64,000 nt of DNA, from assembly GCA_964642155.1 (NCBI GenBank), contig CAZXNT010000002.1, positions 1,801-65,800 of the forward strand, read 5' to 3'. A model generated the notes under the pieces. It did no database searches, had not been told where the DNA came from, and saw only the letters and a list, made by a program, of their open reading frames with translations. The stretch comes from an uncultured Candidatus Saccharibacteria bacterium. Its GTDB lineage: Bacteria > Patescibacteriota > Minisyncoccia > UBA6257 > UBA9933. The position numbers were made by a program, and so were the translations under genes. Shown here piece by piece: positions 5,829 to 56,635 of the stretch; the stretch's first letter is position 1; every line of letters starts with the position of its first letter.

Positions 5829-5869
5829 AGCGGAATTTTCAAAATTCAGCGTTCGTATTTTCGTTAAAA

Positions 5870-5904
5870 AAAGTTCGAACATCAATCAAAAAACACCGCC
5901 AATT
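5870..5904. repeat. Dispersed intergenic repeat, copy b
   Basis: aaagttcgaacatcaatcaaaaaacaccgccaatt. Confidence 0.7.
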
Positions 5905-8426: not shown

Positions 8427-8454
8427 TCATTTGGATTTTGCTCGAAATAGTTTA

Positions 8455-8500
8455 GAACTTCGTTCAAAAAACACCGCCAATTTTCAGAATTCTGATTTTA
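8455..8500. repeat. Dispersed intergenic repeat, copy d (the most complete copy)
   Basis: gaacttcgttcaaaaaacaccgccaattttcagaattctgatttta. Confidence 0.7.
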
Positions 8501-19000: not shown

Positions 19001-19013
19001 CAGATTTTAATTA

Positions 19014-19041
19014 TTGACTTTTTTGGTGGAATGTGTATAAT
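19014..19041 (+). promoter_or_regulatory. Sigma70-type promoter (TTGACT, 16 nt spacer, TGnTATAAT); start of the duplicated promoter/leader cassette
   Basis: ttgact tttttggtggaatgtg tataat. The cassette 19014-19125 is about 85% identical to 25693-25805. Confidence 0.6.
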
Positions 19042-19125
19042 TGAAACAATTAACAAATTAACAAAAGTTCGTTTTTAACGGACTAGATGATAGAAAATCG
19101 GAAAAAAGAAAATTGGAGGTGGAAT

Positions 19126-25692: not shown

Positions 25693-25720
25693 ATTGACTT
25701 TTTTAGTGAAATAGATATAA
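25693..25720 (+). promoter_or_regulatory. Sigma70-type promoter (TTGACT, 16 nt spacer, TATAAT); second copy of the promoter/leader cassette
   Basis: ttgact tttttagtgaaataga tataat. The downstream leader gaaacaattagtaaattaacaaaagttcg..cggactaaatgatagaaaatc matches the 19042-19100 leader. Confidence 0.6.
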
Positions 25721-25805
25721 TTGAAACAATTAGTAAATTAACAAAAGTTCGCCATTGGCGGACTAAATGATAGAAAATCAATTTTTTGAAAGGAGGTGAA
25801 AATCA

Positions 25806-26344: not shown

Positions 26345-28171
<1,827 letters not shown>

Positions 28172-28175
28172 AAAT

Positions 28176-28211
28176 ATTACATTTCAACTGCTATCGCAGT
28201 TGAAATGTAAT
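28176..28211. repeat. 36-nt perfect palindrome (attacatttcaactgc tatc gcagttgaaatgtaat), copy A, 5 nt after the stop of the phase-variable gene
   Basis: A 16-bp perfect stem. The identical 35-nt sequence recurs inside fpg at 40270-40304. Confidence 0.9.
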
Positions 28212-28372
28212 AGTAAATTATCCCCTCCAAACTATCCCAAACGATACGGGGCTTTTTATTTTTTTAAAAATGGATTAAGATAAAGGAATTGGTATAAATT
28301 TTGGAGCCATAGGCGAACAAAATTTATTTACCAAACCTTTACCCTGTTAAATAATTTTAAATTTTCTATAAT

Positions 28373-28642
28373 ATGTTTTATTATGTATATGTTTTAAAAT
28401 CATTGAAAGATAATAAATTTTATACGGGTTATACGGAAAATTTAAAATTAAGATTTGAGGAACATCAAAAAGGATATGTATTATCAACAAAAGATAGAAG
28501 ACCGTTTAAATTGGTTTATTATGAATCTTGTTTAGATAAGAAAGATGCTATACACAGAGAGAAATATTTAAAAACATATTTAGGTAAAATGTTTATTAAA
28601 AATCGCCTCAAATCTTATTTAACAGGGTGCTCAATGTTGTAG
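28373..28642 (+). CDS. GIY-YIG nuclease family protein (small, UvrC-N-terminal-like)
   Basis: YVYVLKS...FYTGYTENLKLRFEEH (GIY...YIG...R..H/E). Confidence 0.75.
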   Translation: MFYYVYVLKSLKDNKFYTGYTENLKLRFEEHQKGYVLSTKDRRPFKLVYYESCLDKKDAIHREKYLKTYLGKMFIKNRLKSYLTGCSML

Positions 28643-28700
28643 ATAAATTTATTTCGCTCAACATTGGGTTTCGCTTATAAATTTATACAACATTGGCATG
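28626..28700 (+). repeat. 75-nt duplicated leader element, copy 1 (it includes the last codons of the GIY-YIG gene and the ATG of the PfkB gene)
   Basis: ggtgctcaatgttgtagNNaaatttatttcgctcNNcattgNgtNtNgctNataaatttNaNaacaacattggcATG; about 85% identical to 39894-39968. Confidence 0.85.
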
Positions 28701-29768
28701 TACGATATCATCACAATCGGTACGGCGACGCGGGATGTTTTTTTAACCAGCCCGCTTTTTAAAGTTTTACGCGATAAAAGCCATTTGAAAAAAATCGGGT
28801 TTGCCACCGGTGAAGCGCAATGTTTCGCTTTGGGCGGGAAAATAGAAATCGGCGAGCCGGTGCTTGCCACGGGCGGTGGTGCCACCAATTCCGCGGTAAC
28901 ATTCAGCCGCCAGGGATTAAAAACCGCAACATTGATAAAAATCGGCGAAGACCAGGTCGGCAAGGATATTTTAGAAGAATTAAAAAAAGAGAAAATAGAT
29001 GTTTTAAAACTACAAAATACAAACTATAAACTACAAACTAATAACGGCACTGCTTATTCAACTATTCTTTTGGCGCCCGGCGGCGAAAGAACAATTTTGG
29101 TTTATCGCGGCGCTTCGGAAGATTTAACTTTTAAAGAAATTCCTCTTAGTGAATTAAAATCCAAATGGGTTTATGTTTCGCCGGGCAAAATGCCGCTTGA
29201 AACAATCAATAAAATTTTCAATCATTTCTATAAAAACAAAACTTTTATCGCTTTTAATCCCTCAAAGTATTTTATTGAGATGGGATTAAAAAAATTAAAA
29301 CCGCTCTTAAAAAAAACTAAAGTGTTTATTCTTAATCGCGAGGAAGCGTCTTATTTGACGGGAGTTGATTATCATAAAGAAAAAGAAATTTTCAAAAAAC
29401 TTGATGAGGTGGTTGACGGCATTGCCGTGATGACCGACGGGCCGAATGGCATTTTGGTCTCAGATTGCTGCAATATTTATAAAGCTGGAATTTTTTCCGC
29501 CAGAGGCAGGGGAAAAAAAGCGATTGATCGCACCGGCGCCGGCGACGCTTTTGGCAGCGGATTCGTGGCGGGCTTGATTCAGACGCGGGAAAAATGCAAA
29601 AAAGGATTATGCGGAATTGACAATGTTGAATACGCCATTCGTTTGGGTTCAGCCAACGCCACTTCGGTAATTGAAAAAATCGGCGCGAAAAAAGGAATTA
29701 TTACTAAATTAGAATTTCAGAAGTCAAAACGATGGAAAAATCTGTTAATAAATATTATAAAAACATAA
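28698..29768 (+). CDS. PfkB-family carbohydrate/ribokinase-like kinase
   Basis: Second PfkB signature DRTGAGDAFGSGFVAG. The N-terminal GG motif is ALGGKIEIGEPVLATGGGATN. Confidence 0.8.
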   Translation: MYDIITIGTATRDVFLTSPLFKVLRDKSHLKKIGFATGEAQCFALGGKIEIGEPVLATGGGATNSAVTFSRQGLKTATLIKIGEDQVGKDILEELKKEKIDVLKLQNTNYKLQTNNGTAYSTILLAPGGERTILVYRGASEDLTFKEIPLSELKSKWVYVSPGKMPLETINKIFNHFYKNKTFIAFNPSKYFIEMGLKKLKPLLKKTKVFILNREEASYLTGVDYHKEKEIFKKLDEVVDGIAVMTDGPNGILVSDCCNIYKAGIFSARGRGKKAIDRTGAGDAFGSGFVAGLIQTREKCKKGLCGIDNVEYAIRLGSANATSVIEKIGAKKGIITKLEFQKSKRWKNLLINIIKT

Positions 29769-29775
29769 ATTATTT

Positions 29776-31050
29776 ATGAAATCTTTTGAAAAAATCGCTC
29801 AAATATTGCGTACCGACAAAGATAATATCCGCTTTATAGAAGAGCGGTTTTCGGCCATAACCGGCAAAAAAAATATAATTGACAAAATTGTTGAAGAAAA
29901 CGAAGCGATGATGAAGAGTCGGCTTGATGTTCTTGGCTTAAAAGAAAGCGCGACTGCCAAAGAAATTTATAACGCTTTAATTAGTAAAATTGAAGCGGAT
30001 GATGTTCAATTATTTAAAGTTTTGGGTTCGCCGTTAGTAACAATTTCAAGCGATTGGCAACGGGTTTTGGAAACGGCTCAATCAATAGCCAATAAGCCGA
30101 AAGGTTTTTTTCTTAAAAAAGAAAAAGCAATTGAATTTTTAAAAAATCAGCCGCCGCTGAAAATTCTTAAAACGCTTGGATATAAAGATGTTGGCGCAAT
30201 GGTTCAAAAAGAAAATATTTTTGAAATTTTTAGCGCCTTAAGATTTGTTGAAGGAAGCGATTGGCTCAATAAAGTTTTTTTCAAACAATATGAAAATCTT
30301 AAACCAAGCGATTTTGAAGAAAGAGAAATTGAAGTTTTGGCTTTACCGGAAAGATGGGCGAAAATCGCTCAAGAATTTATCGGGCACAAGCGTCATAATA
30401 TCAGCCATCTAAAAGAGTTGGGATTGATTTATGTTATTCCTTTGTCTTTGGAAATTTCAGGAGAAACTTTAAGAAATTTCGGTTTGATTCTCCATTATTT
30501 TAATGAAGTTCCTTTTTATTCCGACCTTGTTAAAAATTTTAGCGTTGCTGAAAAATCATTCGCAAATAATTTAATATCTTTATTACGCGGCGATGTTCTT
30601 GATGAAAGATTATTGAAATTAGACCCGCCTGCCGGCAAGGCAAATAAATCGCAGTGGCTTATTATCCAAAGATATTTGGCGAAAGATGATGAAAATGATT
30701 GGCGGTTATTTGAGCCGCATTTGAATCCAGAAGCGCTTCACTGGGAAAAAGCCGAGAAAATGTTGGTGAAAGCCGGTGAATCCCTTAATCATTTTTCCAG
30801 CGATATGTCTTTTTGGCAGAATTTGAATTGGGTGGGAGATTATTTCAAAAGCGACACAGGTATTGAAGTTTTGGTAAGTTTTAATTTAATTGATACCACA
30901 ATGTCTTTGGTAAAAGAAAAAGATATGATAAAATATCTGTATCATCACCAGGAAGCGCTTTGGAATAAAATTTTTTCAGAGTATTTTAGCGAAATAGAAA
31001 TGGAAGAAAAAATGAAAGAGAATATAATTAAGGGGTGGTTTCAAATATGA
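29776..31050 (+). CDS. Hypothetical protein
   Basis: 424-aa ORF with a 4-nt ATGA overlap with fba; no recognisable motif. Confidence 0.5.
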   Translation: MKSFEKIAQILRTDKDNIRFIEERFSAITGKKNIIDKIVEENEAMMKSRLDVLGLKESATAKEIYNALISKIEADDVQLFKVLGSPLVTISSDWQRVLETAQSIANKPKGFFLKKEKAIEFLKNQPPLKILKTLGYKDVGAMVQKENIFEIFSALRFVEGSDWLNKVFFKQYENLKPSDFEEREIEVLALPERWAKIAQEFIGHKRHNISHLKELGLIYVIPLSLEISGETLRNFGLILHYFNEVPFYSDLVKNFSVAEKSFANNLISLLRGDVLDERLLKLDPPAGKANKSQWLIIQRYLAKDDENDWRLFEPHLNPEALHWEKAEKMLVKAGESLNHFSSDMSFWQNLNWVGDYFKSDTGIEVLVSFNLIDTTMSLVKEKDMIKYLYHHQEALWNKIFSEYFSEIEMEEKMKENIIKGWFQI

Positions 31051-31922
31051 AAACTTTATATCAAATAATACAAGAAGCGGAACAATCGCGAATCGCTATC
31101 GGGCATTTTAATATTTCAGAATGCGTTGCATTGAAGGGAATTTTTAAAGCGGCTCAGGAATTGAATTTGCCGGTAATTATCGGTCTTTCCGAGGGCGAGC
31201 AAAATTTTATGGGGACAAAACGCGCGGCGTTAATGGTAAAAAGTTTGCGCGAGGAATTTAATTGGCCGATTTTTATCAATTCTGACCATACGAAATCATT
31301 AGAGAAAATAAAAGAAGCGGTTGAAGCCGGATTTGATTCGGTTCATTTTGACGGCGGTAAATTATCTTTTGAAGAAAACATTAAAAAAACAAAAGAAGTA
31401 GTTGAATATGTAAAAAGTGTCAATCCGGATATTTTAGTGGAAGCGGAACTCGGGTATCTGGGCGCCAGTTCAACGATTTTAAAGGAAATTCCCAAAGACG
31501 TCGCGATTAAAGAAGAAGATTTAACAAAGCCGGAACAAGCCGCTCAATTTGTAAAAGAAACAGGCATTGATTTATTGGCGCCGGCAGTCGGCAATATTCA
31601 CGGAATGTTTAAAAACGCGCCTAATCCCCACATTGATTCAGCGAGAATCGGGAAAATAAGAGAATTAGCCGGAGTGCCATTGGTTCTTCATGGCGGTTCG
31701 GGAATTCGCGACGAGGAATTTTTAAAAGCCATTGATGCCGGAATATCAATTATTCATATTAATACGGAAATAAGATTGGCCTGGCGACAGGGGATGGAAA
31801 AAGCGTTGGCGGAAAATCTTGAAGAAATTACGCCTTACAAAATTTTGCCGATAACAATTGAAGAAATTAAAAAAATGATTGAGAAAAGAATGAAATTATT
31901 CAGTAAACTGGACAAACAATAA
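31047..31922 (+). CDS. fba: Class II fructose/tagatose-bisphosphate aldolase
   Basis: IGHFNISE, NSDHTKS, VHFDGG, LVLHGGSG zinc-aldolase motifs. The start overlaps the upstream stop (ATGA). Confidence 0.85.
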   Translation: MKTLYQIIQEAEQSRIAIGHFNISECVALKGIFKAAQELNLPVIIGLSEGEQNFMGTKRAALMVKSLREEFNWPIFINSDHTKSLEKIKEAVEAGFDSVHFDGGKLSFEENIKKTKEVVEYVKSVNPDILVEAELGYLGASSTILKEIPKDVAIKEEDLTKPEQAAQFVKETGIDLLAPAVGNIHGMFKNAPNPHIDSARIGKIRELAGVPLVLHGGSGIRDEEFLKAIDAGISIIHINTEIRLAWRQGMEKALAENLEEITPYKILPITIEEIKKMIEKRMKLFSKLDKQ

Positions 31923-31942
31923 TAAATTAATATAATAAACTT

Positions 31943-32146
31943 ATGATTGAATTAAAACGAAGACAAGGAGAATCAATAAGTGTTTTTTTACACCGTTTTT
32001 CAACTAAAATGAAACAAAGCGGAATTTTGATGGAATCTAAAAGGCGTCGTTATAAAGACCGTCCGGTGAGCAAGGCCAAAATAAAACGTTCAGCAATCCA
32101 TCGGGCGGTAAAACAGAAGGAATTTGAAGCGGCAAAGAAAAGCTGA
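31943..32146 (+). CDS. rpsU: 30S ribosomal protein S21
   Basis: 67 aa, basic, with an LHRFSTKMKQSGIL...KAKIKRSA S21 pattern. Confidence 0.75.
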   Translation: MIELKRRQGESISVFLHRFSTKMKQSGILMESKRRRYKDRPVSKAKIKRSAIHRAVKQKEFEAAKKS

Positions 32147-32160
32147 TAAATTGGAAAGGA

Positions 32161-32625
32161 ATGATTCAACAAAAGATAAAAGAAGATTTAAATATTTTTT
32201 TGAAAGCCGGCAAAAGTTTTGAAGCCGGCGTTTTGCGTTTAATGTTCTCAGTTTTCAAGAATAAAGAAATTGAAAAGCGGGGGAAGGGACAGGAAACAGA
32301 ACTTACAGACGAAGAAATTGTTGACCTCTTAATGAAAGAAGTAAAAAAAAGAAAAGAAGCGGCGGATGTTTATAAGAAGGGTAATAGAGAAGATTTAGCC
32401 GAAAAAGAAATGAAAGAATTGGAAGTTATTAAGAAATATTTACCTAAGGAATTAAGCGCGGAAGAAATTGAAAAAATCGTTGATAAGGCGATTGCGGCAA
32501 CGAGCGCGACAAATATGAAAGATATCGGCAAAGTTATGGCAGAAGCGATGAAAGAGTTGAAAGGCCGAGCCGATGCGTCGGCAGTCGGCGCGATGATTAA
32601 GAAAAAATTAGAGAATGGCAAATAA
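32161..32625 (+). CDS. GatB/YqeY domain protein
   Basis: Size and helical KE-rich sequence pattern with the conserved ..DIGKVM..A... block. Confidence 0.65.
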   Translation: MIQQKIKEDLNIFLKAGKSFEAGVLRLMFSVFKNKEIEKRGKGQETELTDEEIVDLLMKEVKKRKEAADVYKKGNREDLAEKEMKELEVIKKYLPKELSAEEIEKIVDKAIAATSATNMKDIGKVMAEAMKELKGRADASAVGAMIKKKLENGK

Positions 32626-33040
32626 AATTACGGTTGTTAGTTTGGAAAAGCAATTTAAGAAGTTTGAAAAAGATATCAAAAAGGTTGCGTCGGCGATTTT
32701 TAAAATTTTAAACAAGGATAACGTCGCGGTTGATATTTATTTGACAGGCAACGCGCTGATGCGGCGGTTAAATAAAAAATATCGCGGCAAAGACAAAGCC
32801 GCAAATGTTTTAAGTTTTGTGGAGCCGACAAATTTTCCTCATCCGGAAACAAAGGCGCGTTTTTTAGGCGAAATATATCTCAATTTCCAATTTTCTAATT
32901 TCCTAATTTCTCAATTATTAATTCACGCCATTCTTCATTTACTTGGCTATACTCATAAGGGAAAAAGTGATAGAATGAAAATGGAAAAAAAAGAAAACCA
33001 TGTACATCACCTCTTTAGACATAGGAACTTCGCAAATTAA
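32615..33040 (+). CDS. ybeY: rRNA maturation endoribonuclease YbeY
   Basis: HAILHLLGYTH zinc-binding H..LHLLGY(D/T)H motif. Upstream N..Y.G.D..TNVLSF block. Confidence 0.8.
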   Translation: MANKITVVSLEKQFKKFEKDIKKVASAIFKILNKDNVAVDIYLTGNALMRRLNKKYRGKDKAANVLSFVEPTNFPHPETKARFLGEIYLNFQFSNFLISQLLIHAILHLLGYTHKGKSDRMKMEKKENHVHHLFRHRNFAN

Positions 33041-34265
33041 AGCTTTGGTTGCCGAAGCGGGAAAAGGCGGCAAATTATCTTTGATTGCCGCTTTTAAATG
33101 TCCGTCAAGCGGTATTCGCAAAGGGGAAGTAAGCGATATTAACGAATCATCTTTCTCTTTAAAAAGCATTTTTGAAAATTTATTTTCACTTAATAAATCG
33201 GCGTTAAAAAATATTTTTGTGAATATTGGCGGCGCGAACGTTAAATCCCATAATTCAAAAGGGATAGTGGCGGTTTCGCGCGCTGATAATGAAATTTCTC
33301 AAGACGACATTGATAGGGTGATTAAGGCGTCTCAAGCCGTTAAACTATCGCCGAACAGAATGATTATTCATACCGTTACCAGGGAATTTATTATTGATGG
33401 CGTCGGCGACGCGCGGGAGCCGTTGGGAATGTTCGGCGCGCGGTTGGAAGTCAACAGCGCGGTCATAGACGCTCCTTCGCAGAATTATAAAAATATCTCC
33501 AGACTGATTGAAACACTTGGCGGCAAAATAAGCGGATTGATTTACGGGCCTCTGGCGGCTTCCCGTTCAACTCTCGCGAAAATTAAAAAAGATTTAGGCG
33601 CGGTTTTGATTGATATTGGCGGCGGTTCCACCACGATGAGCGTTTATGAAGAGGGAAAACTTTTACATACGGCCGGTTTTCCAATCGGCTCCGGTCATAT
33701 CACCAATGATTTAGCGATAGGCCTTAAATGTTCGGTTAAATTAGCGGAAGTATTTAAAATTTTTTTCGGAAATGCTTTAGCCAAAGAAATTTCCAGCAAA
33801 GAAAAAATATCGCCCAATGACATTGAGGGAAAAATAGGTATGGAAATTTCCGAACTTGACAAAAATTTTAAATCCGTTGTTTCTCGCCGGGAAGTCGCGG
33901 AAATTATAGAAAGCCGGTTGACGGAAATTTTTGAATTTGTTAATAATGAGTTAAAATTAATCGGTAAGAACGGCCGGTTGCCGGCAGGGGTAATACTTTG
34001 CGGTGGCGGAGCAAAAATGTCGTCAATCGTTGATCTTGTCAAAGAAGAATTAAAACTTCCAGCTGAGATCGGATTTCCCGATACCGGTGAAATAGAAATT
34101 ATTGACCAAAATGTCAGCAATGAAATTAATGACCCGGAATTCGCCGTTTCTTTGGGACTGCTTTTACTGGCGAAAGACCAATGGATGAGGAATAACGAGT
34201 GGCCGATTTCCGGCAAGTTTTCTTTTATAAATTTAAAAAAGATTTTTAAATATTTTACGCCTTAA
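33000..34265 (+). CDS. ftsA: Cell division protein FtsA
   Basis: Actin-like ATPase motifs LDIGTSQIKALV, IDIGGGSTT, and a C-terminal amphipathic tail. Confidence 0.9.
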   Translation: MYITSLDIGTSQIKALVAEAGKGGKLSLIAAFKCPSSGIRKGEVSDINESSFSLKSIFENLFSLNKSALKNIFVNIGGANVKSHNSKGIVAVSRADNEISQDDIDRVIKASQAVKLSPNRMIIHTVTREFIIDGVGDAREPLGMFGARLEVNSAVIDAPSQNYKNISRLIETLGGKISGLIYGPLAASRSTLAKIKKDLGAVLIDIGGGSTTMSVYEEGKLLHTAGFPIGSGHITNDLAIGLKCSVKLAEVFKIFFGNALAKEISSKEKISPNDIEGKIGMEISELDKNFKSVVSRREVAEIIESRLTEIFEFVNNELKLIGKNGRLPAGVILCGGGAKMSSIVDLVKEELKLPAEIGFPDTGEIEIIDQNVSNEINDPEFAVSLGLLLLAKDQWMRNNEWPISGKFSFINLKKIFKYFTP

Positions 34266-34277
34266 ATTCCAAAAATA

Positions 34278-35441
34278 ATGGCAAAAAGATCTAAAAAACC
34301 AAAAAATATCAATCTGGCGAAAATAAGAATCGTCGGCGTCGGGGGAGCCGGCGGTAATGCCGTGACAAGAATGAGCGATGAATTTCCCCGTGGCACGGAT
34401 TCAGTTGTTATCAATACTGATGCTCAGGATTTGAATTATTGTATTTCCAGAAAGAAAATTTGTATTGGAAAAAATCTTACTAAGGGTTTGGGAACCGGAA
34501 TGAACCCGGATTTAGGCCGCCAAGCAGCCGAAGAAAACCAAGCGGAAATTGCCGAAGCGCTAAGCGGAGCGGATATGGTTTTTTTAACAGCCGGATTCGG
34601 CGGCGGAACCGGAACCGGCGCTTTACCGGTGGTCGCGGAAATCGCCAAAGATTTGGGAATTTTAACCGTTGCCATAGTCACCAAACCGTTTGTTTTTGAA
34701 GGATTTGAACGTCGAAGAATAGCTGAAGAAGGAATAGCGAGAATAAAAGATAAGGTTGACACTTTAATCACCATTCCCAATGACCGGATATTTTCGGTAA
34801 TCAATCAAAATACTCCTTTAATAAAAGCTTTTGAAGCGGTTGATGAGATTCTTAAAAATTCCGTTATTGGGGTTGCTGATTTAATTGCCACTGCCGGGAT
34901 TATCAACGTTGATTTTGCCGATGTAAAAGCCATAATTCAAAACGCCGGTTCGGCGATTATCGGCATCGGCTATTCCAGTGGAGCCGAACGCGCCACAACA
35001 GCCGCTCATTTGGCGATTAATTCTCCTCTGTTGGAAATTTCCATTGACGGAGCGAAAAGAATTTTATTCAGCGTTTCCGGTCATCGCGATTTAAAGATGA
35101 GTGAGATAAACGATGTGGCGAGAATGATTGCCGAACACGCCAATCCTTCGGCAAAAATAATTTTCGGCGCCCATCATGACCGCAAACTTAAAAAGGGGCA
35201 ATTGAAAGTGACCTTAATAGCTGCGGATTTTAACGGAGATGTGGTAAAATCTTCAAACAATGGAATTTTACCAAATCTTTTTATTTCAGAAGAAATTGTT
35301 CCGAAGATTGAAACGCCAATGATAAGCAGTGCCAAAGACGTAAAAAAAAAAGAAAAAGAAGAAATGATAAACGAAGAAAAAAACGGAAATTGGGACGACG
35401 TGTATGATATTCCGGCATTTTTAAGGAAGAAAAAGAAATAA
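34278..35441 (+). CDS. ftsZ: Cell division GTPase FtsZ
   Basis: GVGGAGGNAV and tubulin signature GGGTGTGA. Confidence 0.95.
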   Translation: MAKRSKKPKNINLAKIRIVGVGGAGGNAVTRMSDEFPRGTDSVVINTDAQDLNYCISRKKICIGKNLTKGLGTGMNPDLGRQAAEENQAEIAEALSGADMVFLTAGFGGGTGTGALPVVAEIAKDLGILTVAIVTKPFVFEGFERRRIAEEGIARIKDKVDTLITIPNDRIFSVINQNTPLIKAFEAVDEILKNSVIGVADLIATAGIINVDFADVKAIIQNAGSAIIGIGYSSGAERATTAAHLAINSPLLEISIDGAKRILFSVSGHRDLKMSEINDVARMIAEHANPSAKIIFGAHHDRKLKKGQLKVTLIAADFNGDVVKSSNNGILPNLFISEEIVPKIETPMISSAKDVKKKEKEEMINEEKNGNWDDVYDIPAFLRKKKK

Positions 35442-35442
35442 T

Positions 35443-38043
35443 ATGTTTAAATTAATCCGCAAACGTAACGGTCAAACAGCGCCGTTTAAAATTGAAAAAA
35501 TAATCAATGCCGTTTACAGGGCTTCTGTTGCGGTTGGAGAGCCGAATTGGCAATTGGCGACGGAATTCTCAAAGGAAGTGTTTCGTCGGTTGCAGAAAAA
35601 AATAAAAAAAGGCGCGATTCCCGCAGTTGAAGAAGTTCAAGATGTTGTGGAACAAGTTTTGATTGAAAAAGTCCATCCTCGTATTGCCAAGGCTTATATT
35701 TTATACCGCCAGCATCGTGCGGAAATAAGAAAAGAAAAAGAACAAGTTTTGAATAAGGAGGAGGTAGATGAAGTTGATAAAAAATTTGACATTAACGCCT
35801 TGAGAGTTTTGGCGTCGCGTTATTTGAGAAAAAGCGATGATGGAAAAATAATTGAATCGCCCAAACAGCTTTTTGAAAGAGTGGCGACGCACACGGCGAT
35901 TTCTTCTCTTTTTTACGATTCCAAGATTTACAAAAAAGCGGGCGGAAATCCGGAACGCCGTTTTGAAGAATTTGAACCGATAAAATTCGCCGGCAAATTT
36001 TCAATAGGTAAATACAAACTTAACCAATTTCATTTGGAAGGAATGAAAAGGATGTATGACCGATTGGCAAAAGAGAAAAAAATAAAAATTTCTTGGCAGG
36101 GTTTTTTAGAGCTTTTTAAAAAAGGATATTTTAACAAGTATGAATCTGAAATTGACGCTTATTATAATTTAATGGTAGAGCGCCGTTTTATGCCCAACAC
36201 TCCGGCTTTGGCGAATTTTGGCAATTATTTCGGAATGGGTTCGGCTTGTTTCGTTCTCGGCATAGAAGATTCCATAGAATCAATAATGGATTCTTTGAAA
36301 GCCGCGGCGATTATTTTCAAGTCTGGCGGCGGAGTGGGATATAATTTTTCTCATTTGAGACCTGAAAATGATTTTATTAAAACCACTGGCGGCGCGTCTT
36401 CTGGTCCAATCAGTTTTATGTCTATGTATGACAATATGACGGATGTGATTAAGCAAGGCGGAATCAGGCGAGGCGCCAATATGGGAATTTTAAACAGCGA
36501 CCATCCGGATATTGATAAATTCATTAAAGCTAAAGAAGGGAATAAAGCTTTGCGGAATTTTAACATTTCAATAATGGTTAAGCCGGAATTCTGGCAATGT
36601 TTAAAAGAAGGCAAAATGTATCCTTTAATAAATCCGAGAAACGGAAAAGTTGTTAAAGAAATAGACCCGAAACAGCTTTTTGATATGATTACTTACCAAG
36701 TTTGGGAATCGGCTGAACCGGGAATTTTGTTTTATGACCGAATCAATGAATACAATCCTTTTGCGAAATCATTGGGGCCGATTGAATGTACTAATCCTTG
36801 CGGTGAAGTTTTACTTTATCCGTTTGAATCCTGTAATCTCGGCTCAATAAATATTTGGGAATATTTAAAGAAAAATGGCGGCAAAAAACCGCATTTTGAC
36901 TGGCAGGCGCTTGAACGCGACGTTAAAATCGCCACAAGATTTTTGGATAATGTGGTGGATATTAATAAATATCCTTCGCCGGAAATTGAAGAAATGAGTT
37001 TAAACACGCGCAAACTTGGGTTGGGCGTAATGGGCGTTGCCGATTTGTTTTTTGAACTTGAAATTCCTTACGCCTCCAAACAGTGTCTAGAATTTATGGA
37101 ACGTTTAATGGAATTCATCAATTATCACGCTAAGCTTGCTTCAGTTGAACTTTCGAAAGCGCGCGGTCGAATGCCATATTTTGATAAGTCATTTTATAAA
37201 GAAGGGAAATTGCCGTTTGCCGGATTTAAAGACAAAAAATCTTGGCATCTTGATTGGAATGGAATCGTGAAAAAAATAAAAAAATACGGCATCAGAAACG
37301 GATTTAACACCGTTATCGCGCCGACCGGTTCAATCTCAATGATTGCCGGAACTTCCAGCGGCATTGAACCGATATTCAGTTTGGTTTTTGAAAAAAGCGT
37401 GGCAATCGGAAATTTTTATTATGTTGACCCGGTGTTTGAAGAAAGAATGAGAAAAGAAGGATTAATGGATGAAGACTTAATAAAAGATGCCTCGGCGTTG
37501 AACGGTAGCATTAAAAACATCACTTATATTCCGGCGAACATTAAAAAGATTTTTTTAACTGCCATGGATATTTCTCCAGTTGACCACATTAAAGTTTTGG
37601 CGGCATTTCAAAAATGGACTGATTCGTCAATTTCAAAAACGAATAATTTTCCGTCGGACGCCTCGGTTGATGATATTAAAAAAGCTTATTTATTGGCTTA
37701 TGAATTGGGGTGCAAGGGCGTAACTGTTTACCGCGATAAATCTTTGAAAAATCAGGTTTTAATCGGCGGGAGCATCAAAAAGAAATTAAAAGAAAAAGAT
37801 TCTTCACAGCATTTAACACTTGTTAAAAAAGATGAAAAAACAAAGGGGATGGCTGTTTATGCCGAAGCTGGAGCTAATATTTCTTTGACTCCGTCCAGTA
37901 GCTTGGGATTGTCGCCGGCTGATAACGGCGATGAGCCGCAAGGAAAAAATTCTTTGAAAATGTGCCCTTCTTGCAATGTCGCGCTCGCGAAGCAGGAAGG
38001 ATGCATCAAGTGCCCGAGTTGCGGTTGGGGACTATGCGGTTAA
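35443..38043 (+). CDS. nrdJ: Class II (adenosylcobalamin-dependent) ribonucleotide reductase with an N-terminal ATP-cone and a C-terminal zinc ribbon
   Basis: ATP-cone LIRKRNGQTAPFKIEKI. Active-site TNPCGE...ESCNLGSIN. C-terminal CPSC...CIKCPSCG. Confidence 0.85.
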   Translation: MFKLIRKRNGQTAPFKIEKIINAVYRASVAVGEPNWQLATEFSKEVFRRLQKKIKKGAIPAVEEVQDVVEQVLIEKVHPRIAKAYILYRQHRAEIRKEKEQVLNKEEVDEVDKKFDINALRVLASRYLRKSDDGKIIESPKQLFERVATHTAISSLFYDSKIYKKAGGNPERRFEEFEPIKFAGKFSIGKYKLNQFHLEGMKRMYDRLAKEKKIKISWQGFLELFKKGYFNKYESEIDAYYNLMVERRFMPNTPALANFGNYFGMGSACFVLGIEDSIESIMDSLKAAAIIFKSGGGVGYNFSHLRPENDFIKTTGGASSGPISFMSMYDNMTDVIKQGGIRRGANMGILNSDHPDIDKFIKAKEGNKALRNFNISIMVKPEFWQCLKEGKMYPLINPRNGKVVKEIDPKQLFDMITYQVWESAEPGILFYDRINEYNPFAKSLGPIECTNPCGEVLLYPFESCNLGSINIWEYLKKNGGKKPHFDWQALERDVKIATRFLDNVVDINKYPSPEIEEMSLNTRKLGLGVMGVADLFFELEIPYASKQCLEFMERLMEFINYHAKLASVELSKARGRMPYFDKSFYKEGKLPFAGFKDKKSWHLDWNGIVKKIKKYGIRNGFNTVIAPTGSISMIAGTSSGIEPIFSLVFEKSVAIGNFYYVDPVFEERMRKEGLMDEDLIKDASALNGSIKNITYIPANIKKIFLTAMDISPVDHIKVLAAFQKWTDSSISKTNNFPSDASVDDIKKAYLLAYELGCKGVTVYRDKSLKNQVLIGGSIKKKLKEKDSSQHLTLVKKDEKTKGMAVYAEAGANISLTPSSSLGLSPADNGDEPQGKNSLKMCPSCNVALAKQEGCIKCPSCGWGLCG

Positions 38044-38048
38044 TCTTT

Positions 38049-39752
38049 ATGCATCTTTTACAAGAAGACATCAAAAAAATAGTGGAATCTACGGGGTTGG
38101 TGAATGAGCATGATTATCAGGTAGCTGAAGAAGAAGCGGTTCGCAGTAACCGTTTGGTTTTGGATATTCTTATCGGTAAGGGATTTATTGATGAAAAATA
38201 TCTCGCCGGAAGCATCGCTAAATTTTTTAATGTTCCGCAAATTAATCTTTCCACAGTTGATTTTTCTCAAGACGTTTTAAAATTAATTCCCGAAGCTTTT
38301 GCTAAAAGCCGCGGCGTGATTCTTTTTGAATTTAATCCGGAAGGAAAACGGGGGAAATTGGCGATGCTTGACCCGGAAGATTTTTATACCATTAATTATC
38401 TTCGGACATTGCTTAACGCCTGGTTGGATATTTATTTAATGTCGCAATCCGATTTAAAATTCGGCCTTAGACAGTATAAAAAGAAAATAAACGAGGAATT
38501 TGGAAAAGTCATTGAAGAAAATCTTAAAGAATCCATAGGGATTGCCGGAGCGCTGGATATGTCCAAAATGATTGAAGCGGTGCCGATAGTCAATATCGTC
38601 AATACGATTATTGAACACGCCGCCACTTTGGGGGCGTCAGACATTCATTTTGAACCCTTTGAAAAAAAATTAACGGTGCGTTATCGCATAGACGGGATTT
38701 TGCAGGAAATTTTAAATTTGCCGCCGGTGATAGCGCCGATTTTAGTGGCGAGGATAAAAGTTATGGCGAATTTGCAGATAGACATTCATAACGCGCCGCA
38801 AGACGGTCGTTTCAGATTTCCCATAGAAGACCAATTTGTTGACGTTCGCGTTTCCGTAATTCCGACTTTTCACGGAGAAAAAGGCGAAATGCGCTTATTA
38901 AAAGGTTCTTTACGGCCTTTGACACTTTATGAATTGGGATTTTCCCAAAATGATTTGCCGAGAATAGAAATAGCGATTAAAAAACCACGCGGAATGATTT
39001 TAGTGACCGGTCCGACGGGGCATGGGAAAACAACGACACTTTATGCCATTTTGGGTATTCTGAATACGCCGAAAGTGAATATTACTTCGGTTGAAGACCC
39101 GATTGAATATGACATCCCGGGCGTTAATCAGACGCAGGTTAATGTCAAAGCCGGTCTCACGTTTGCTTCAGGATTGCGTTCTTTGGTGAGACAAAATCCG
39201 GACATTATTATGGTTGGTGAAATTCGCGATTCGGAAACCGCGGATATCGCTATAAACGCCGCTTTAACCGGCCATCGTTTGCTTTCAACGCTTCATACCA
39301 ATGACGCTCCGACCGCCGTCCCTCGGTTGATTGATTTGGGCGTGCCGCCATTTTTGATTTCTTCAACGCTTAACGTGGTGATTGCCCAGCGCTTGGTGCG
39401 CAGAATTTGCAACGCTTGCGTTCGGTCAATAAAACCAAGCAAAGAATTATTAAACGTGTTACAAAGCCATTTAAAAAGCATGGGCGTAAAAGCGAAAATG
39501 CCGGAAACGATTTATCAGGGTGAGGGATGCGGTATCTGCGGTTTTTCCGGCTATCGCGGACAAATAGGGCTTTTTGAAATTATTTATGTTTCGGATGCTA
39601 TCCGCGAATTGGTTATTGCCAAAGCGTCAACCAATATTATTAAAGACAAAGCGCGCGCCGAAGGAATGAAACTTATGTTTGAAGACGGGCTATCAAAAAT
39701 CGAATCCGGCCAAACTACTTTGGAGGAAGTGTTGAGAGTGGCGGTGGAGTAA
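38049..39752 (+). CDS. pilB: Type II secretion / type IV pilus assembly ATPase (GspE/PilB family)
   Basis: Walker A GPTGHGKTTT, Asp-box, Walker B, and a tetracysteine CNACV...CGICG. I chose the ATG at 38049, just after the nrdJ stop, over the 37962 extension. Confidence 0.85.
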   Translation: MHLLQEDIKKIVESTGLVNEHDYQVAEEEAVRSNRLVLDILIGKGFIDEKYLAGSIAKFFNVPQINLSTVDFSQDVLKLIPEAFAKSRGVILFEFNPEGKRGKLAMLDPEDFYTINYLRTLLNAWLDIYLMSQSDLKFGLRQYKKKINEEFGKVIEENLKESIGIAGALDMSKMIEAVPIVNIVNTIIEHAATLGASDIHFEPFEKKLTVRYRIDGILQEILNLPPVIAPILVARIKVMANLQIDIHNAPQDGRFRFPIEDQFVDVRVSVIPTFHGEKGEMRLLKGSLRPLTLYELGFSQNDLPRIEIAIKKPRGMILVTGPTGHGKTTTLYAILGILNTPKVNITSVEDPIEYDIPGVNQTQVNVKAGLTFASGLRSLVRQNPDIIMVGEIRDSETADIAINAALTGHRLLSTLHTNDAPTAVPRLIDLGVPPFLISSTLNVVIAQRLVRRICNACVRSIKPSKELLNVLQSHLKSMGVKAKMPETIYQGEGCGICGFSGYRGQIGLFEIIYVSDAIRELVIAKASTNIIKDKARAEGMKLMFEDGLSKIESGQTTLEEVLRVAVE

Positions 39753-39893
39753 AGGGCTTTGTTCCCCCGCGTTGGCGGGGGATTACAAAACCTTTACCCC
39801 GCCCTCTAAGCATATGGAATTAAAACAAGATAATTTATTAAGATTAAATTATGATTTCTGAATTAGTCTTTGTTTAACAGGCATAGAGGGCGG

Positions 39894-39968
39894 GGTGCTC
39901 AATGTTGTAGTGAAATTTATTTCGCTCGGCATTGAGTCTTGCTCATAAATTTCAACAACATTGGCATG
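39894..39968 (+). repeat. 75-nt duplicated leader element, copy 2 (it includes the fpg ATG)
   Basis: See copy 1 (28626-28700). It is preceded by a long-range inverted repeat ccccgccctctaagc / gcatagagggcgggg. Confidence 0.85.
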
Positions 39969-40913
39969 CCGGAGCTTCCAGAAGTAGAAACAATCGTCAA
40001 TGACTTGAGAAAAAAAATCGTCGATAGAAAAATTACGGGCGTTTGGTTTGACGCGCCAAAACTTATTAAAAAACCGAAACCGAAAGAATTAGAAAAGCAA
40101 ATAAAAGGATTGAAAATTATTGACATCAAACGTCGCGGGAAAAACATCCTTATTTATTTAACTACAAACTATAAATTACGAACTACAAACTATTTATTAC
40201 TGATTCATCAAAAGATGACGGGGCATCTTTTGTACGGGAAATGGCGAGTAAAATGTGATAATTCCAAAGTTACATTTCAACTGCTATCGCAGTTGAAATG
40301 TAATAAAAAACGAAAAGTTGAAAGTTTAATCAAGGGCGTTTTGGAAGAAAAAGTTAATAATTACATTCATTTTATTCTTTATCTTGATAACGGTTGGCAA
40401 GTCGGGCTTTCGGATTTGAGAAAATTCGCCAAAATTTTATTCGGCAAGAAAGAAGAAATTGAAAATTTGGCGGAATTAAAAAATTTGGGACCGGAGCCGT
40501 TAGACAAAAGTTTCAAGTTTATAAAGTTTGTAAAGTTAATAAAGTTTCAAAAGCGCAAAATCAAACAAGTTTTGATGGACCAAAATGTTATTGCCGGCAT
40601 TGGCAATATTTATTCCGATGAGATTTTATGGCAGGCGAAGATACATCCGTTCAAGCTGGCGGATGAATTAACAAATACTGAATTAGAAAAAATTTATTCA
40701 GCCACAAAAGAAATTTTAAAAAAAGCCGTAAAATTGCGCGGAACTTCAATCAGCGATTTTCGCGACGCTTTTGGCAAAAGCGGAGGGTATGTTAAAATAT
40801 TAAAAATTTACCGGCGCGAAGGCGAACTTTGTCAACGTTGCGGAACAATTATAAAAAGAGTTAAGATGGGAGGAAGAAGCGCTCATTATTGTCCCAAATG
40901 CCAAAAGATATAA
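39966..40913 (+). CDS. fpg: Formamidopyrimidine-DNA glycosylase (Fpg/MutM) carrying two in-frame repeat-derived insertions
   Basis: MPELPEVE catalytic N-terminus, H2TH, AGIGNIY, and the zinc finger CQRCG...CPKCQ. Inserts at 40161-40192 (TTNYKLRTTNY) and about 40240-40330. Confidence 0.9.
   Translation: MPELPEVETIVNDLRKKIVDRKITGVWFDAPKLIKKPKPKELEKQIKGLKIIDIKRRGKNILIYLTTNYKLRTTNYLLLIHQKMTGHLLYGKWRVKCDNSKVTFQLLSQLKCNKKRKVESLIKGVLEEKVNNYIHFILYLDNGWQVGLSDLRKFAKILFGKKEEIENLAELKNLGPEPLDKSFKFIKFVKLIKFQKRKIKQVLMDQNVIAGIGNIYSDEILWQAKIHPFKLADELTNTELEKIYSATKEILKKAVKLRGTSISDFRDAFGKSGGYVKILKIYRREGELCQRCGTIIKRVKMGGRSAHYCPKCQKI
40270..40304. repeat. 35-nt perfect palindrome, copy B, inside the fpg coding sequence (encodes VTFQLLSQLKCN)
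   Basis: ttacatttcaactgctatcgcagttgaaatgtaat is identical to 28177-28211. It lies within a roughly 30-aa insertion relative to other Fpg proteins. Confidence 0.9.
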
Positions 40914-43905: not shown

Positions 43906-44289
43906 ATGCGTTTACTTGGTATCAACATCCCGGACAATAAAAAAATTAAAATAGCCTTAACCCATGTTTACGGTATAGGCCGCTTTTCGGCTATTAATAT
44001 TTTAACGTTAGCCGGAGTTGATCCGGAAAAAAAGACGAAAGATTTAACCTCTGAAGAAACGAATAAAATCAAACAATTGATTGAAAAAAATCATAAGATA
44101 GAAGGCGAATTGCGCCAAGTTATCAAGGGTAATATTGTGAGGCTTAAAGAAATAAAATGCTACAGAGGCTCAAGACATGAAAGAAAATTGCCAGTTAGAG
44201 GGCAAAGAACAAAAACAAATTCTCGGACAGTCCGCGGTAATGTTAGAAAAACAGTCGGCAGTGGAAAAAGAAAAGTTGATTTGAAATAA
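43906..44289 (+). CDS. rpsM: 30S ribosomal protein S13
   Basis: MRLLGINIPDNKKIKIALTHVYGIGR... Confidence 0.92.
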   Translation: MRLLGINIPDNKKIKIALTHVYGIGRFSAINILTLAGVDPEKKTKDLTSEETNKIKQLIEKNHKIEGELRQVIKGNIVRLKEIKCYRGSRHERKLPVRGQRTKTNSRTVRGNVRKTVGSGKRKVDLK

Positions 44290-44429
44290 TCCCTCACCCT
44301 TCAAAGATTAAATATTATTAAACTTTGATAATGAGGGAATAAATTAAATTTTGTTAAAATAAATATAATTCAAAGAATCAATATTTTTCATTTTTTTAAA
44401 TGAAAAATAAAATCTTTGAAGGGTGAGGG
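44290..44429. repeat. TIR-flanked intergenic element, copy 1 (between rpsM and rpsK)
   Basis: Begins tccctcacccttcaaagat immediately after TAA, and ends atctttgaagggtgaggg immediately before ATG. Confidence 0.9.
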
Positions 44430-44894
44430 ATGGGACAAAAAAAAGTTATAGAAAAAACTGAAAAAGATATTTTAGAAGAAGGCAAGAAATTGGAAGAAAC
44501 GATGGCAAAAAAATCTTCCGTTAAAAAAAGCGGACAAGTGGTTGGGAAAATAGGCGTTGGCGTGATTTACGTAAATTTCAGCTATAATAATACCATGCTT
44601 ACGGCAACCGATAAAAAAGGCAATGTGGTTGCGTGGATTTCCGCCGGCTCTTTGGGTTTTTCGGGGCCTAAAAAAGCCACGCCATTCGCGGCTTCAAAAA
44701 TGGTGGCAGCTGTGTCCGAAAAATTAAAAAAAATCGGTTTTTCCGAAATTGAAGTGGTGATGAAAGGAGTTGGTAGTGCTAGAGATTCCGCCCTGAAATC
44801 TTTAGCAGGTCAAGGATTTAGTATTTTATCAATAAAAGACGTGACGCCAATTCCGCATAATGGTCCGCGTCCGCCGAAAAAAAGAAGAGTATAA
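44430..44894 (+). CDS. rpsK: 30S ribosomal protein S11, with an N-terminal KE-rich extension
   Basis: NNTMLTATDKKGNVVAWISAGSLGF... Confidence 0.9.
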   Translation: MGQKKVIEKTEKDILEEGKKLEETMAKKSSVKKSGQVVGKIGVGVIYVNFSYNNTMLTATDKKGNVVAWISAGSLGFSGPKKATPFAASKMVAAVSEKLKKIGFSEIEVVMKGVGSARDSALKSLAGQGFSILSIKDVTPIPHNGPRPPKKRRV

Positions 44895-54803: not shown

Positions 54804-55202
54804 ATGGGTATTTTAAAAAAAACACAATCAAAAAAAGACTTGTCCGTGAATTCGGGAGAAAAAAAATCAGAATCAATAAAAAATCAAATTACGGCGCAAG
54901 TTGAGAAAGTGATTATTAATCCGCAGGAGACGATGAAAATAAAACATCCGTGGATAACCGAAAAAGTCGGCCATTTAATTGATTTAAGAAAATACGCTTT
55001 TTTGGTTGATAAAAAAATCAATAAGCCGCAGGTGGTAAAAGCGATAGAATCAATTTATGGAGTGAAAGTTTTATCGGTGAATATAATTAATAAAAAAGGG
55101 AAAATTAAATCACTGGGGCGCAGTAAAGGGAAAGTTCCGGGACATAAAAAAGCGATAGTGACGTTAAAAGAGGGTCATAAAATTGACGTAATGCCGACAT
55201 AA
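54804..55202 (+). CDS. rplW: 50S ribosomal protein L23
   Basis: KHPWITEK...YAFLVDKKINKPQVVKAIE. Confidence 0.88.
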   Translation: MGILKKTQSKKDLSVNSGEKKSESIKNQITAQVEKVIINPQETMKIKHPWITEKVGHLIDLRKYAFLVDKKINKPQVVKAIESIYGVKVLSVNIINKKGKIKSLGRSKGKVPGHKKAIVTLKEGHKIDVMPT

Positions 55203-55344
55203 TCCCTCACCCTTCAAAGATAATGAAGAGTTTGGGAAATAAAATATTTTTATGTTATATATAAAATAAATTAAAATTTAATCTTCACAAGATTTATCTT
55301 GTAAATTTTTATAAAATTTACAAGCAATCTTTGAAGGGTGAGGG
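55203..55344. repeat. TIR-flanked intergenic element, copy 2 (between rplW and rplB)
   Basis: Same 19/18-nt arms. The interior is about 97% identical to copy 4. Confidence 0.9.
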
Positions 55345-56169: not shown

Positions 56170-56335
56170 TCCCTCACCCTTCAAAGATATTTTAAAAAAA
56201 TAACCCCTCACCCTTTAAAATTAAAGGGTGAGGGGTTGAAGAGTAAGTGGATAAAAATTCAAATAAAAATAAAAATTCAAAGAATCAATATTTTTCATTT
56301 TTTAAATGAAAATTAAAATCTTTGAAGGGTGAGGG
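56170..56335. repeat. TIR-flanked intergenic element, copy 3 (between rplB and rpsS), with a nested 34-nt solo palindrome at 56203-56236
   Basis: Same arms. The nested acccctcaccctttaa aa ttaaagggtgaggggt is a collapsed arm pair. Confidence 0.9.
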
Positions 56336-56635
56336 ATGAGTAGAAGTTCAAAAAAAGGTCCTTATGTTGACCAAAAATTATTAAAAAAGATGTCAAAATT
56401 GAAATCGGGCGACCCGACGATTATTAAGACTTGGTCGCGCGATTCGGAAATTTCTCCGGAAATGGTTGGTTTTACGTTTGGCGTCCATAACGGCAAGAAT
56501 TTTATCAGCGTAAGGGTGACCGAAGAAATGATTGGCCACCGGTTGGGAGAATTTTCTTTAACGAGAAAATTCATCAGGCATGGAGGAAAAATGCAAAAGG
56601 AATTGGAAAAGAAGACGGAGGAAAAGAAAGTTTAA
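56336..56635 (+). CDS. rpsS: 30S ribosomal protein S19
   Basis: [14 protein letters not shown]... Confidence 0.92.

Follow-up and report, generated by a model that had tools for sequence, protein, structure and literature searches.

What is a 75-nt sequence doing directly in front of two unrelated genes, in each case with the gene's start codon inside it? The question arises in a 64,000-nt stretch of contig CAZXNT010000002.1 (assembly GCA_964642155.1), here called the window, from which all positions are counted. The 75-nt sequence turned out to be just the 3′ domain (D3) of an element with three hairpins, which runs from the stop codon of one gene to the start codon of the next. This element has a constant architecture with covarying stems, exists in many copies, stands before different genes, is missing from an orthologous site and keeps a fixed orientation.

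A conserved hairpin ending on start codons

The window contains two copies of D3, whose segments A, B and C are referred to throughout:

28626-28700, + strand: D3 hairpin copy 1, with A at 28629-28639, B at 28659-28669 and C at 28687-28700, the last including the PfkB ATG
39894-39968, + strand: D3 hairpin copy 2, with A at 39897-39907, B at 39927-39937 and C at 39955-39968, the last including the fpg ATG

A first-pass annotation of the window had described a duplicated element before unrelated genes, and this description proved correct. Repeat comparison within the window aligned 28625-28700 with 39893-39968 (76 nt, 87% identical), and the 17-mer GGTGCTCAATGTTGTAG at the 5′ end of D3 occurs exactly twice, compared with 0.08 occurrences expected by chance. 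Both copies end on true start codons: the ATG closing copy 1 (28698-28700) opens the gene of a PfkB-family kinase, and that closing copy 2 (39966-39968) opens fpg, whose product has the canonical Fpg N-terminus MPELPEVE. The proline that follows the initiator methionine of Fpg is the catalytic nucleophile; since it must take this position, the ATG at 39966 is the genuine start. Copy 1 also holds, as had been noted, the last codons of a GIY-YIG gene, an open reading frame (ORF) at 28373-28642 that ends inside D3 with TGC TCA ATG TTG TAG.

Folded alone, each copy forms one long hairpin (copy 1, -23.6 kcal/mol, z=-5.4; copy 2, -27.5 kcal/mol, z=-5.8), and two compensatory changes in the inner stem already distinguish copy 1 from copy 2. 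Folding and alignment agreed with the annotation that segment A can pair with either B or C, and did so for both copies. A covariance model of D3 recovered only the two known copies in the window (copy 1, 103.1 bits; copy 2, 101 bits).

Further copies came from a scan of a collection of species-representative genomes, with both hairpin arms as the search pattern. Five of the 59 loci returned were excluded as chance matches (unrelated phyla, unrelated interiors). The other 54 are metagenome-assembled genomes (MAGs) of Patescibacteria, or candidate phyla radiation (CPR), labelled Portnoy-, Jorgensen-, Azam-, Brenner- or Sungii-bacteria, Paceibacterota, 'Saccharibacteria' or plain 'bacterium', and multiple copies occur in several genomes. 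When a covariance model was made from the scan copies, it added approximately 30 stem-divergent copies in the same loci, and the pair of the first-pass annotation thereby became a family of 84 D3 copies in approximately 50 Patescibacteria MAGs. Locus L024 alone carries five copies over 6.6 kb of a ribosomal-protein operon. D3 had no match in a viral contig collection, and a phage origin was rejected on that result.

An ORF-opening ATG lies within 4 nt after D3 in 53 of 56 copies, with the junction ...TTGGC-ATG in 47. Pfam confirmed L36, S19, S8, S3, L11, EF-G, GyrB, NusA, ParA and PilT among the downstream genes; because these matches begin at profile position 1-3, the ATGs behind D3 are real starts. 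The genes concerned are unrelated and mostly essential housekeeping genes, PfkB and Fpg being those of the window. D3 sits between co-directional genes, and its orientation relative to transcription is essentially invariant. RNR, a yqeY-like gene and pilB have no element in the window, though elements precede these genes in other genomes.

The structure of D3 was drawn by hand and counted on an alignment of 55 sequences, then on all 84 copies. It rises from P0 (GUGC/GCAU, in which the A of the AUG takes part) through P1 (9-10 bp), a bulge (A)G and P2 (10 bp) to an internal loop that is rich in pyrimidines and contains a 2-bp GC/GC helix; above this stand P3 (3 bp) and the loop AUUGR. On 55 sequences, 94% of the alignment cells pair and 16 of the 28 pairs change on both sides, a result matched by none of 500 shuffles. 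With all 84 copies, pairing reaches 95.3% and double-sided changes extend to 22 of 28 pairs, so that the covariation by which the annotation had proposed to check its helices is strong in the stems of D3. Slid controls gave at most 42% pairing on the 55-sequence alignment and at most 45% over both counts. P1 varies among the 84 copies as covarying pairs of arms (CAATTTTG/CAAAATTG, CAATGTGA/TCACATTG, CATAATTATA/TATAATTATG), and even the pair formed by the base just 5′ of the ATG covaries, from G11-C83 to A-U or U-A. The loop and internal-loop sequences are kept across lineages.

The element corresponds to no Rfam family. Only a tRNA-Pro passes the gathering threshold in the window, nothing does at the element, and an E-value search of 39700-40050 gave only sub-threshold matches to miRNA- or snoRNA-like hairpins; a known RNA family, a tRNA-like element and a ribozyme were rejected, there being no Rfam match and no tRNA at this place. 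Inspection by eye saw no hammerhead, twister or HDV core within the element. The terminator/antiterminator idea of the first-pass annotation failed, as did an attenuator: there is no U-tract and no terminator-like site between 39650 and 40050 on either strand, and coding sequence follows D3. Integron attC sites were dismissed on alignment inspection, the ends GGTGCTCAATG / CATTGGCATG having no GTTRRRY core and R′ and R″ cores being missing. The triplets ATG-TTG-TAG at the 5′ end of D3 could be taken for a mini-ORF serving as translated leader or for a ribosome hop or shunt; these readings were rejected, as P1 variants such as CATAATTATA and CAATTTTG have no ATG, and a hop over D3 with matching take-off and landing frame would deny Fpg its N-terminal proline. 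A search of the full-text literature on CPR with miniature inverted-repeat transposable elements (MITEs), GIY-YIG or hairpin repeats found no published description of such an element.

The composite element and its nuclease cassette

In the 150 nt upstream of each D3 copy, a constant order was found: a hairpin D1, the 5′ arm of a second stem (S), a loop, the S 3′ arm and D3. The parts in the window are:

28281-28700, + strand: composite copy 1, ORF-bearing (D1, S 5′ arm, GIY-YIG ORF, S 3′ arm, D3), ending on the PfkB ATG
28281-28341, + strand: D1 of copy 1 (TAAAGG...CCTTTA), placed by the D1 alignment and consensus
28342-28354, + strand: S 5′ arm of copy 1, CCCTGTTAAATAA, the left inverted repeat of the GIY-YIG cassette
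28373-28642, + strand: stand-alone GIY-YIG ORF of 89 amino acids (Pfam PF01541) in the S loop of copy 1
28615-28627, + strand: S 3′ arm of copy 1, TTATTTAACAGGG, the right inverted repeat, which also encodes YLTG
39750-39968, + strand: composite copy 2, without ORF, placed by its three-hairpin fold and alignment
39750-39796, + strand: D1 of copy 2, short form, whose first three bases are the pilB stop codon
39797-39811, + strand: S 5′ arm of copy 2, CCCCGCCCTCTAAGC
39881-39895, + strand: S 3′ arm of copy 2, GCATAGAGGGCGGGG

D1 is a hairpin of approximately 47-63 nt reading TAAAGGGCTTTGT ... ACAAAACCTTTA, to which the S 5′ arm adjoins at once; the S loop, either short or occupied by the nuclease gene, measures 4 to 275 nt, and the S 3′ arm runs directly into D3. 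Of the 24 pairs in the D1 consensus, 16 show compensatory changes. Its first three bases, TAA, are the in-frame stop of a long upstream ORF in 21 of 38 checkable loci. One D1 copy has TGA...TCA in place of TAA...TTA, that is, UAA/UUA has become UGA/UCA, and because the second change compensates for the first, the stop codon belongs to the D1 stem. The S arms are wholly different between subfamilies yet complementary, as in CCCCGCCCTCTAAGC/GCATAGAGGGCGGGG, CCGAGCACATA/TATGTGCTCGG, CCCAGCACCTTTT/AAAAGGTGCTGGG, CCCCTCCCCAGTTTT/AAAACTGGGGAGGG and CCCTGTTAAATA/TATTTAACAGGG; a partner with at most two mismatches is present in 47 of 56 copies, and most copies without one lie at contig ends. The D3 covariance model gave weak opposite-strand matches at D1 positions. 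D1 thus looks like D3 read on the opposite strand, which makes the element as a whole a nested palindrome.

ORF-less elements are 154-290 nt long, and the element is multi-copy (two in the 64-kb window, up to five in 6.6 kb at L024). Copy 2 fills the entire spacer from the TAA of pilB to the ATG of fpg and folds as three abutting hairpins without linkers (-91.4 kcal/mol, z=-8.7). At its 3′ end, the S loop of copy 2 (39813-39880) reads AGTCTTTGTTTAACAGG, similar to AATCTTATTTAACAGGG at the corresponding end of the GIY-YIG cassette, and may be the remnant of a lost nuclease gene that was nested in different S arms.

The product of the ORF in copy 1 scores 56.5 bits with the Pfam GIY-YIG profile (cutoff 22.6), and its nearest solved structures are stand-alone UPF0213 proteins (PDB 1zg2, E 1.4e-6). 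Homing enzymes of this family total approximately 200-250 amino acids and include a C-terminal DNA-binding domain that confers specificity for long sites, which this protein of only 89 amino acids lacks; the NCBIfam model grpIintron_endo gave 22.4 bits, below its cutoff of 56. A metagenome scan with the protein returned more than 465 relatives. All 46 relatives inspected, taken from the 80 closest, are flanked by the inverted repeats (TTY)ACCCTGTTAAATAA ... TTATTTAACAGGG(TRA), and since the S stem of copy 1 is built from these same repeats, it is the inverted-repeat pair of the cassette itself. D1 and a D3-type hairpin, which co-occur, accompany only approximately 12-16 of the 80 closest relatives. 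GIY-YIG ORFs also occupy the S loops of two further S subfamilies (L034 and L009); ORF-bearing versions with matching arms are window copy 1, L034, L009 and L060-L072, and GIY-YIG is not a known transposase family.

The ORF of 'naked' cassettes stops at YLTG*, and their right repeat adjoins the next start (GGGTAAATG, GGGTGAATATG and similar). Where a cassette has D3, the nuclease ORF extends four codons into it (CSML*), so that in copy 1 the last four codons and the TAG stop (28640-28642) lie in the D3 5′ arm, the stop falling between P1 and P2. The first-pass suggestion that the repeat had been copied from the GIY-YIG gene therefore holds in part: the nuclease ORF does lie inside the element and reads into D3, but without D3 the same ORF stops four codons earlier. 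The in-frame stop in D3 was uninformative as a sign of descent from ORF-bearing copies, most copies sharing this sequence. Downstream of GIY-YIG at L064/L066, L068, L073, L079 and L104 there are D3-type hairpins that the covariance model missed, of the families GGGTGCTGATTTTTT...AAAAAAATCGCATG and GGTGTAAGAA...TTCTAACATG; they have a GGGTG foot and end on the next ATG.

Mobility, alternative folds and competing explanations

Copy 1 and the elements at L060/L062 align from D1 to exactly ...TTGGCATG and have no homology beyond; their nucleases are 94-97% identical, and the next gene is PfkB in the window but encodes an amidohydrolase at L060/L062. An occupied and an empty site could be compared for the ORF-less copy 2: the orthologous pilB|fpg junction holds the 213-nt element in the window, 18 nt in L142 and a different, 157-nt palindromic filler in L140, while the flanking codons are kept to the base (...GTGGCGGTGGAGTAA | ATGCCGGAGCTTCC...). 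Because an orthologous junction lacks the element and different genes follow it across genomes, we infer that it is mobile. The 18 nt of the L142 spacer (2483-2500), GAGTTCGCCAATTGAGTT, resemble the apical motif of D3 (TTCGC...CATTGAGTT); this likeness could be due to chance or be the scar of a lost element.

D3 itself has received insertions. At L061 (1747-1892), an S-type hairpin of the TATCTAACGGGG family lies inside P1 and replaces the apical part of D3, and approximately 60 nt of extra hairpins are found in P2 at L046 (1841-1975) and L008 (110-244). In some P1 variants the start codon falls inside the D3 3′ arm, and where the next gene is convergent, D3 ends ...TTGGCAAA (GGCAAA) without an ATG. 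These two classes of copies argue that the junction of D3 and ATG was shaped by selection and is no intrinsic terminus.

At which level is the hairpin maintained? Functional RNAs normally tolerate G·U pairs far better than A·C mismatches. In the main stems of D3 (fixed G9·U85 pair excluded) we counted 2048 Watson-Crick cells, 12 G·U and 30 A·C; in the D1 main stem, the counts were 802, 8 and 8 respectively. As a proof of RNA-level function, the comparison of G·U with A·C in the main stems thus came out negative, and stems so nearly pure in Watson-Crick pairs would fit upkeep of the palindrome at the DNA level, through hairpin or cruciform substrates or templated repair.

The alternative pairing of A with B behaves differently. 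In this helix the 5′ arm (GCUCAAUGUUG followed by AGNNAAA) pairs with the apical UUUCGCU and CRRCAUUGRGY. Over 18 pairs, 82.8% of cells pair, compared with at most 46.7% in slid controls, and the 11 core pairs reach 90.8%. The helix contains 90 G·U and 31 A·C; its variable positions lie opposite G or U of the 5′ arm, and hardly any change is seen opposite A or C. Three-way covariation at columns 24-40-57 and 25-39-72 satisfies both folds. Pairing of A with B was better than in shuffled controls in 58 of 84 copies. In simulated transcription, the A:B hairpin was the minimum free energy structure until the last approximately 4 nt, including the AUG, had been made, with nascent and then full-length energies of -15.0 and -23.6 kcal/mol for copy 1 and -24.5 and -27.5 kcal/mol for copy 2. 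In the main subfamily, to which both window copies belong, A:C and A:B are both conserved and constitute two mutually exclusive folds. The shared riboregulatory switch suggested at first pass stands as far as these folds are concerned, since A:C covaries strongly and A:B is conserved; it fails in that no functionally related regulon lies downstream, and conservation of the riboswitch type, before functionally related or orthologous genes, was not seen.

The first-pass annotation was also right that neither ATG is preceded by a Shine-Dalgarno (SD) sequence, but this is nothing special to the two genes: an SD-like motif was found for only 7 of 56 confidently sized genes of the genome, most starts being preceded by A/T-rich sequence, and initiation in this genome is largely SD-independent. 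The leaderless or short-leadered mRNAs that had been proposed on this account are not indicated, as SD sequences are lacking genome-wide and copy 2 has no promoter-like site. Because the genome mostly does without SD sequences, the start region should need to be unstructured, and a closed D3 would be expected to be strongly inhibitory.

We consider it fairly probable that D3 is the start-proximal hairpin of a composite palindromic mobile element of Patescibacteria, and that spread and start-codon switching proceed as follows. The element would spread as DNA, in hairpin or palindrome form, with the GIY-YIG nuclease probably helping through its action on the palindromic S site, and would persist only where it has exactly replaced a stop-to-start spacer. 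In transcripts of operons, the AUG of an SD-less gene would be hidden by the full D3 hairpin. In the main subfamily, the 5′ arm would pair first with the apical look-alike of the 3′ arm (A:B), so that the nascent mRNA exposes the AUG; the closed A:C form would come later, or when the mRNA is not translated. In copy 1, ribosomes translating the nuclease ORF, whose stop lies within the D3 5′ arm, may open the hairpin and couple translation of PfkB to that of the nuclease. Cleavage of the approximately 22-24-bp stems by RNase III is an equally plausible consequence at the RNA level. A bolder version, which we put forward tentatively and regard as possible but doubtful, holds that D1-S-D3 and the 'naked' S cassettes form an unrecognised class of mobile element, widespread across Patescibacteria. 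A GIY-YIG protein of approximately 90 amino acids would recognise and cut its own palindromic arms or hairpins; the element would invade the stop/start junctions of operons and carry an A:B/A:C device that keeps the SD-less host gene translatable.

Several observations weigh against the favoured explanation of a composite mobile element. No target-site duplication flanks either window copy or the aligned copies, no recognised transposase was found with the element, and its outermost bases (TAAAGG... / ...TTGGCATG) are not complementary, though the two arms of S form a perfect inverted repeat. The small share of relatives with D1/D3 demonstrates that the nuclease can occur independently of D3, and D3 lacks the ATG before convergent genes. 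The A:B helix is missing from the divergent subfamilies L018, L063, L071 and L084; it covaries only weakly with changes in the 5′ arm (compared with the canonical arm, a copy's own arm pairs better in 10 cases, equally in 7 and worse in 6), and the closed A:C hairpin remains the thermodynamic ground state. Moreover, all sequences compared are MAGs or metagenomes.

Could the element be a purely selfish DNA palindrome, devoid of RNA-level adaptation? Stop/start limits and orientation would then be what purifying selection has left, and A:B would have arisen incidentally when the 3′ arm was duplicated internally. Main stems that are approximately 97% Watson-Crick, with G·U not in excess over A·C, speak for this, as do the resemblance of D1 to the reverse complement of D3 (seen in the weak opposite-strand matches), palindromes nested in palindromes, the absence of the A:B helix from several subfamilies and the presence, in the same window, of other palindrome families that also span stop to start. 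We nevertheless judge it unlikely. The A:B helix, with three times more G·U than A·C and its variable sites opposite G or U, is specific to the sense RNA strand, the orientation towards transcription is essentially invariant, and some relief mechanism seems needed where essential, highly expressed, SD-less genes stand directly behind a hairpin of -24 to -27 kcal/mol. The same limited credence is due to an intercistronic processing or stability element, which would be compatible with mobility: the approximately 22-24-bp hairpins would be RNase III substrates, and cutting D3 would free the AUG and separate the cistrons. Phage T7 early-mRNA R sites and the Correia elements of Neisseria provide parallels for hairpin processing of the RNase III type; D1, S and D3 each form an almost perfect duplex of at least two helical turns, interrupted by small conserved bulges, and the elements lie within operons, for example ribosomal-protein operons. 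Under such a model, however, the conserved A:B alternative would be superfluous.

Three further explanations rank lower. A trans-acting protein, small RNA or ligand might bind the UUCGCU/UUCGCU internal loop and the AUUGR loop and switch dozens of housekeeping genes together. That loop sequences are kept across lineages, that the fold is bistable and that the downstream genes are enriched in the translation apparatus would agree with this; but occupancy of orthologous junctions varies between related genomes, some copies carry a selfish nuclease gene, Rfam gave no match, and the conserved residues of the supposed loops each take part in pairing in one of the two folds, all of which makes such a regulator improbable. 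Much less credible still is a split ribosome-binding site, in which the G-rich foot GGGGUG would act as an SD sequence placed next to the AUG by the hairpin, in the manner of phage T4 genes 25 and 38. The G-rich run does stand directly 5′ of D3 in all copies, and D3-less cassettes have the same AGGG 3-10 nt before the next ATG, but the genome hardly uses SD sequences (the 7 of 56 genes above), the run is the paired S 3′ arm, and GUGC pairs with GCAU, so that both partners are sequestered. At the very bottom of the scale we place a portable promoter or operator, made of TTCGCT, 17 nt and TATAAA inside D3 and yielding short-leadered mRNAs. This motif can be seen by eye in copy 1, near the end of which there are promoter-like matches; copy 2, in contrast, has no promoter-like site on the + strand, and the supposed -10 covaries as a stem (CGAAAA, CTAAAA, TGAAAT and others), which is incompatible with a conserved -10.

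The composite mobile element favoured here has partial counterparts among known systems. Correia/NEMIS of Neisseria and ERIC/IRU of enterobacteria are co-transcribed, MITE-like palindromes: likewise multi-copy and intergenic, of 100-250 nt, variable at orthologous sites and forming long RNA hairpins that can affect mRNA processing and translation (both predicted in our case). The Patescibacteria element shares no sequence similarity with them and shows no TA target duplication; it has three hairpins with distinct ends that contain stop and start codons, is linked to a GIY-YIG cassette instead of a DDE transposase and is restricted to Patescibacteria. Like a MITE, the ORF-less form is small, non-coding and multi-copy, but it departs from that class in having no target-site duplication, no transposase and no inverted repeats at its extreme ends. 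Free-standing GIY-YIG homing endonuclease genes (T4 Seg, I-TevI family) are comparable as selfish genes between conserved genes, with occupied and empty sites and a nuclease ORF tight against the next start. Here, by contrast, the 89-amino-acid catalytic domain stands alone, is UPF0213/YhbQ-like and has 13-17-bp inverted repeats, ORF-less palindromes are far more numerous, and extra hairpin modules surround the cassette. REP/BIME sequences with their RAYT are also short, abundant extragenic palindromes that form mosaics of modules in transcribed intergenic regions, but REPs measure 20-40 nt, usually follow genes and depend on a Y1 (HUH) transposase, whereas our hairpins measure 47-76 nt and are arranged as D1-S-D3; no RAYT turned up near the element, although no search was aimed at it. 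The maturation gene of phage MS2 and hok mRNA also have a start that is buried at equilibrium and open in a transient co-transcriptional fold, which limits translation to nascent or actively translated mRNA. These are single-copy, gene-specific leaders, whereas here a portable repeat before unrelated genes is predicted to act in this way. Rickettsia palindromic elements (RPE) are similarly tolerated at constrained positions in reduced genomes; D1-S-D3 differs in being intergenic, bounded by stop and start and untranslated save for the last four nuclease codons.

Patescibacteria have tiny, gene-dense genomes that are usually described as poor in mobile DNA and regulators. Here a structured module of approximately 220 nt fills whole intergenic spacers, even in ribosomal-protein operons, and is linked to a small 'hypothetical' nuclease gene that ranks among the commonest of the group. 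If the nuclease mobilises it, this would be a new enzymatic basis for palindrome transposition or homing. If the bistable D3 works as predicted, a selfish sequence could insert on the start codon of an essential SD-less gene without silencing it, and D3 would be a portable device of translation control. With covariance models of D1 and D3, gene starts and repeats in CPR MAGs would be annotated better, and probable break points of assemblies could be marked.

Other repeats in the window

A second palindrome that reaches from stop to start is present in four copies (44287-44432, 55200-55347, 56167-56338 and 61093-61238; TAATCCCTCACCCTTCAAAGAT ... ATCTTTGAAGGGTGAGGGATG). It extends from the upstream TAA to the next ATG in the ribosomal-protein region (e.g. 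before MSRSSKK, S19) and contains neither D1 nor D3. With flanks of the form TA[AT...AT]G, it would be in keeping with insertion into overlapping stop and start codons (TAATG), and a mini-palindrome with the same arm lies at 56202-56237.

A further palindrome family, 'hairpin A' (TTACATTTCAACTGCTATCGCAGTTGAAATGTAA, 17-bp stem), occurs at 28175-28212 and 40270-40305. Its first copy is intergenic, just after the ORF at 26345-28171. The second lies in frame inside fpg, where, in the manner of an RPE, it encodes approximately VTFQLLSQLKCN in an insertion absent from the closest Fpg homologues. The ORF at 26345-28171 specifies 608 amino acids with no Pfam match; an N-terminal (ER)n repeat is followed by a hydrophobic segment, and the product is probably a secreted or surface protein.

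Two more repeats were noted. A sequence of 60 nt occurs three times (3869-3928, 5845-5904 and 8423-8482), with 72-73% identity and AAAGTTCGAACATCAATCAAAAAACACCGCC in common. Another, of 87 nt (85% identical), precedes two different genes at 19013-19099 and 25693-25779; it carries a near-consensus promoter (TTGACT, 17 nt, TATAAT), and the leader behind this contains a small GC hairpin.

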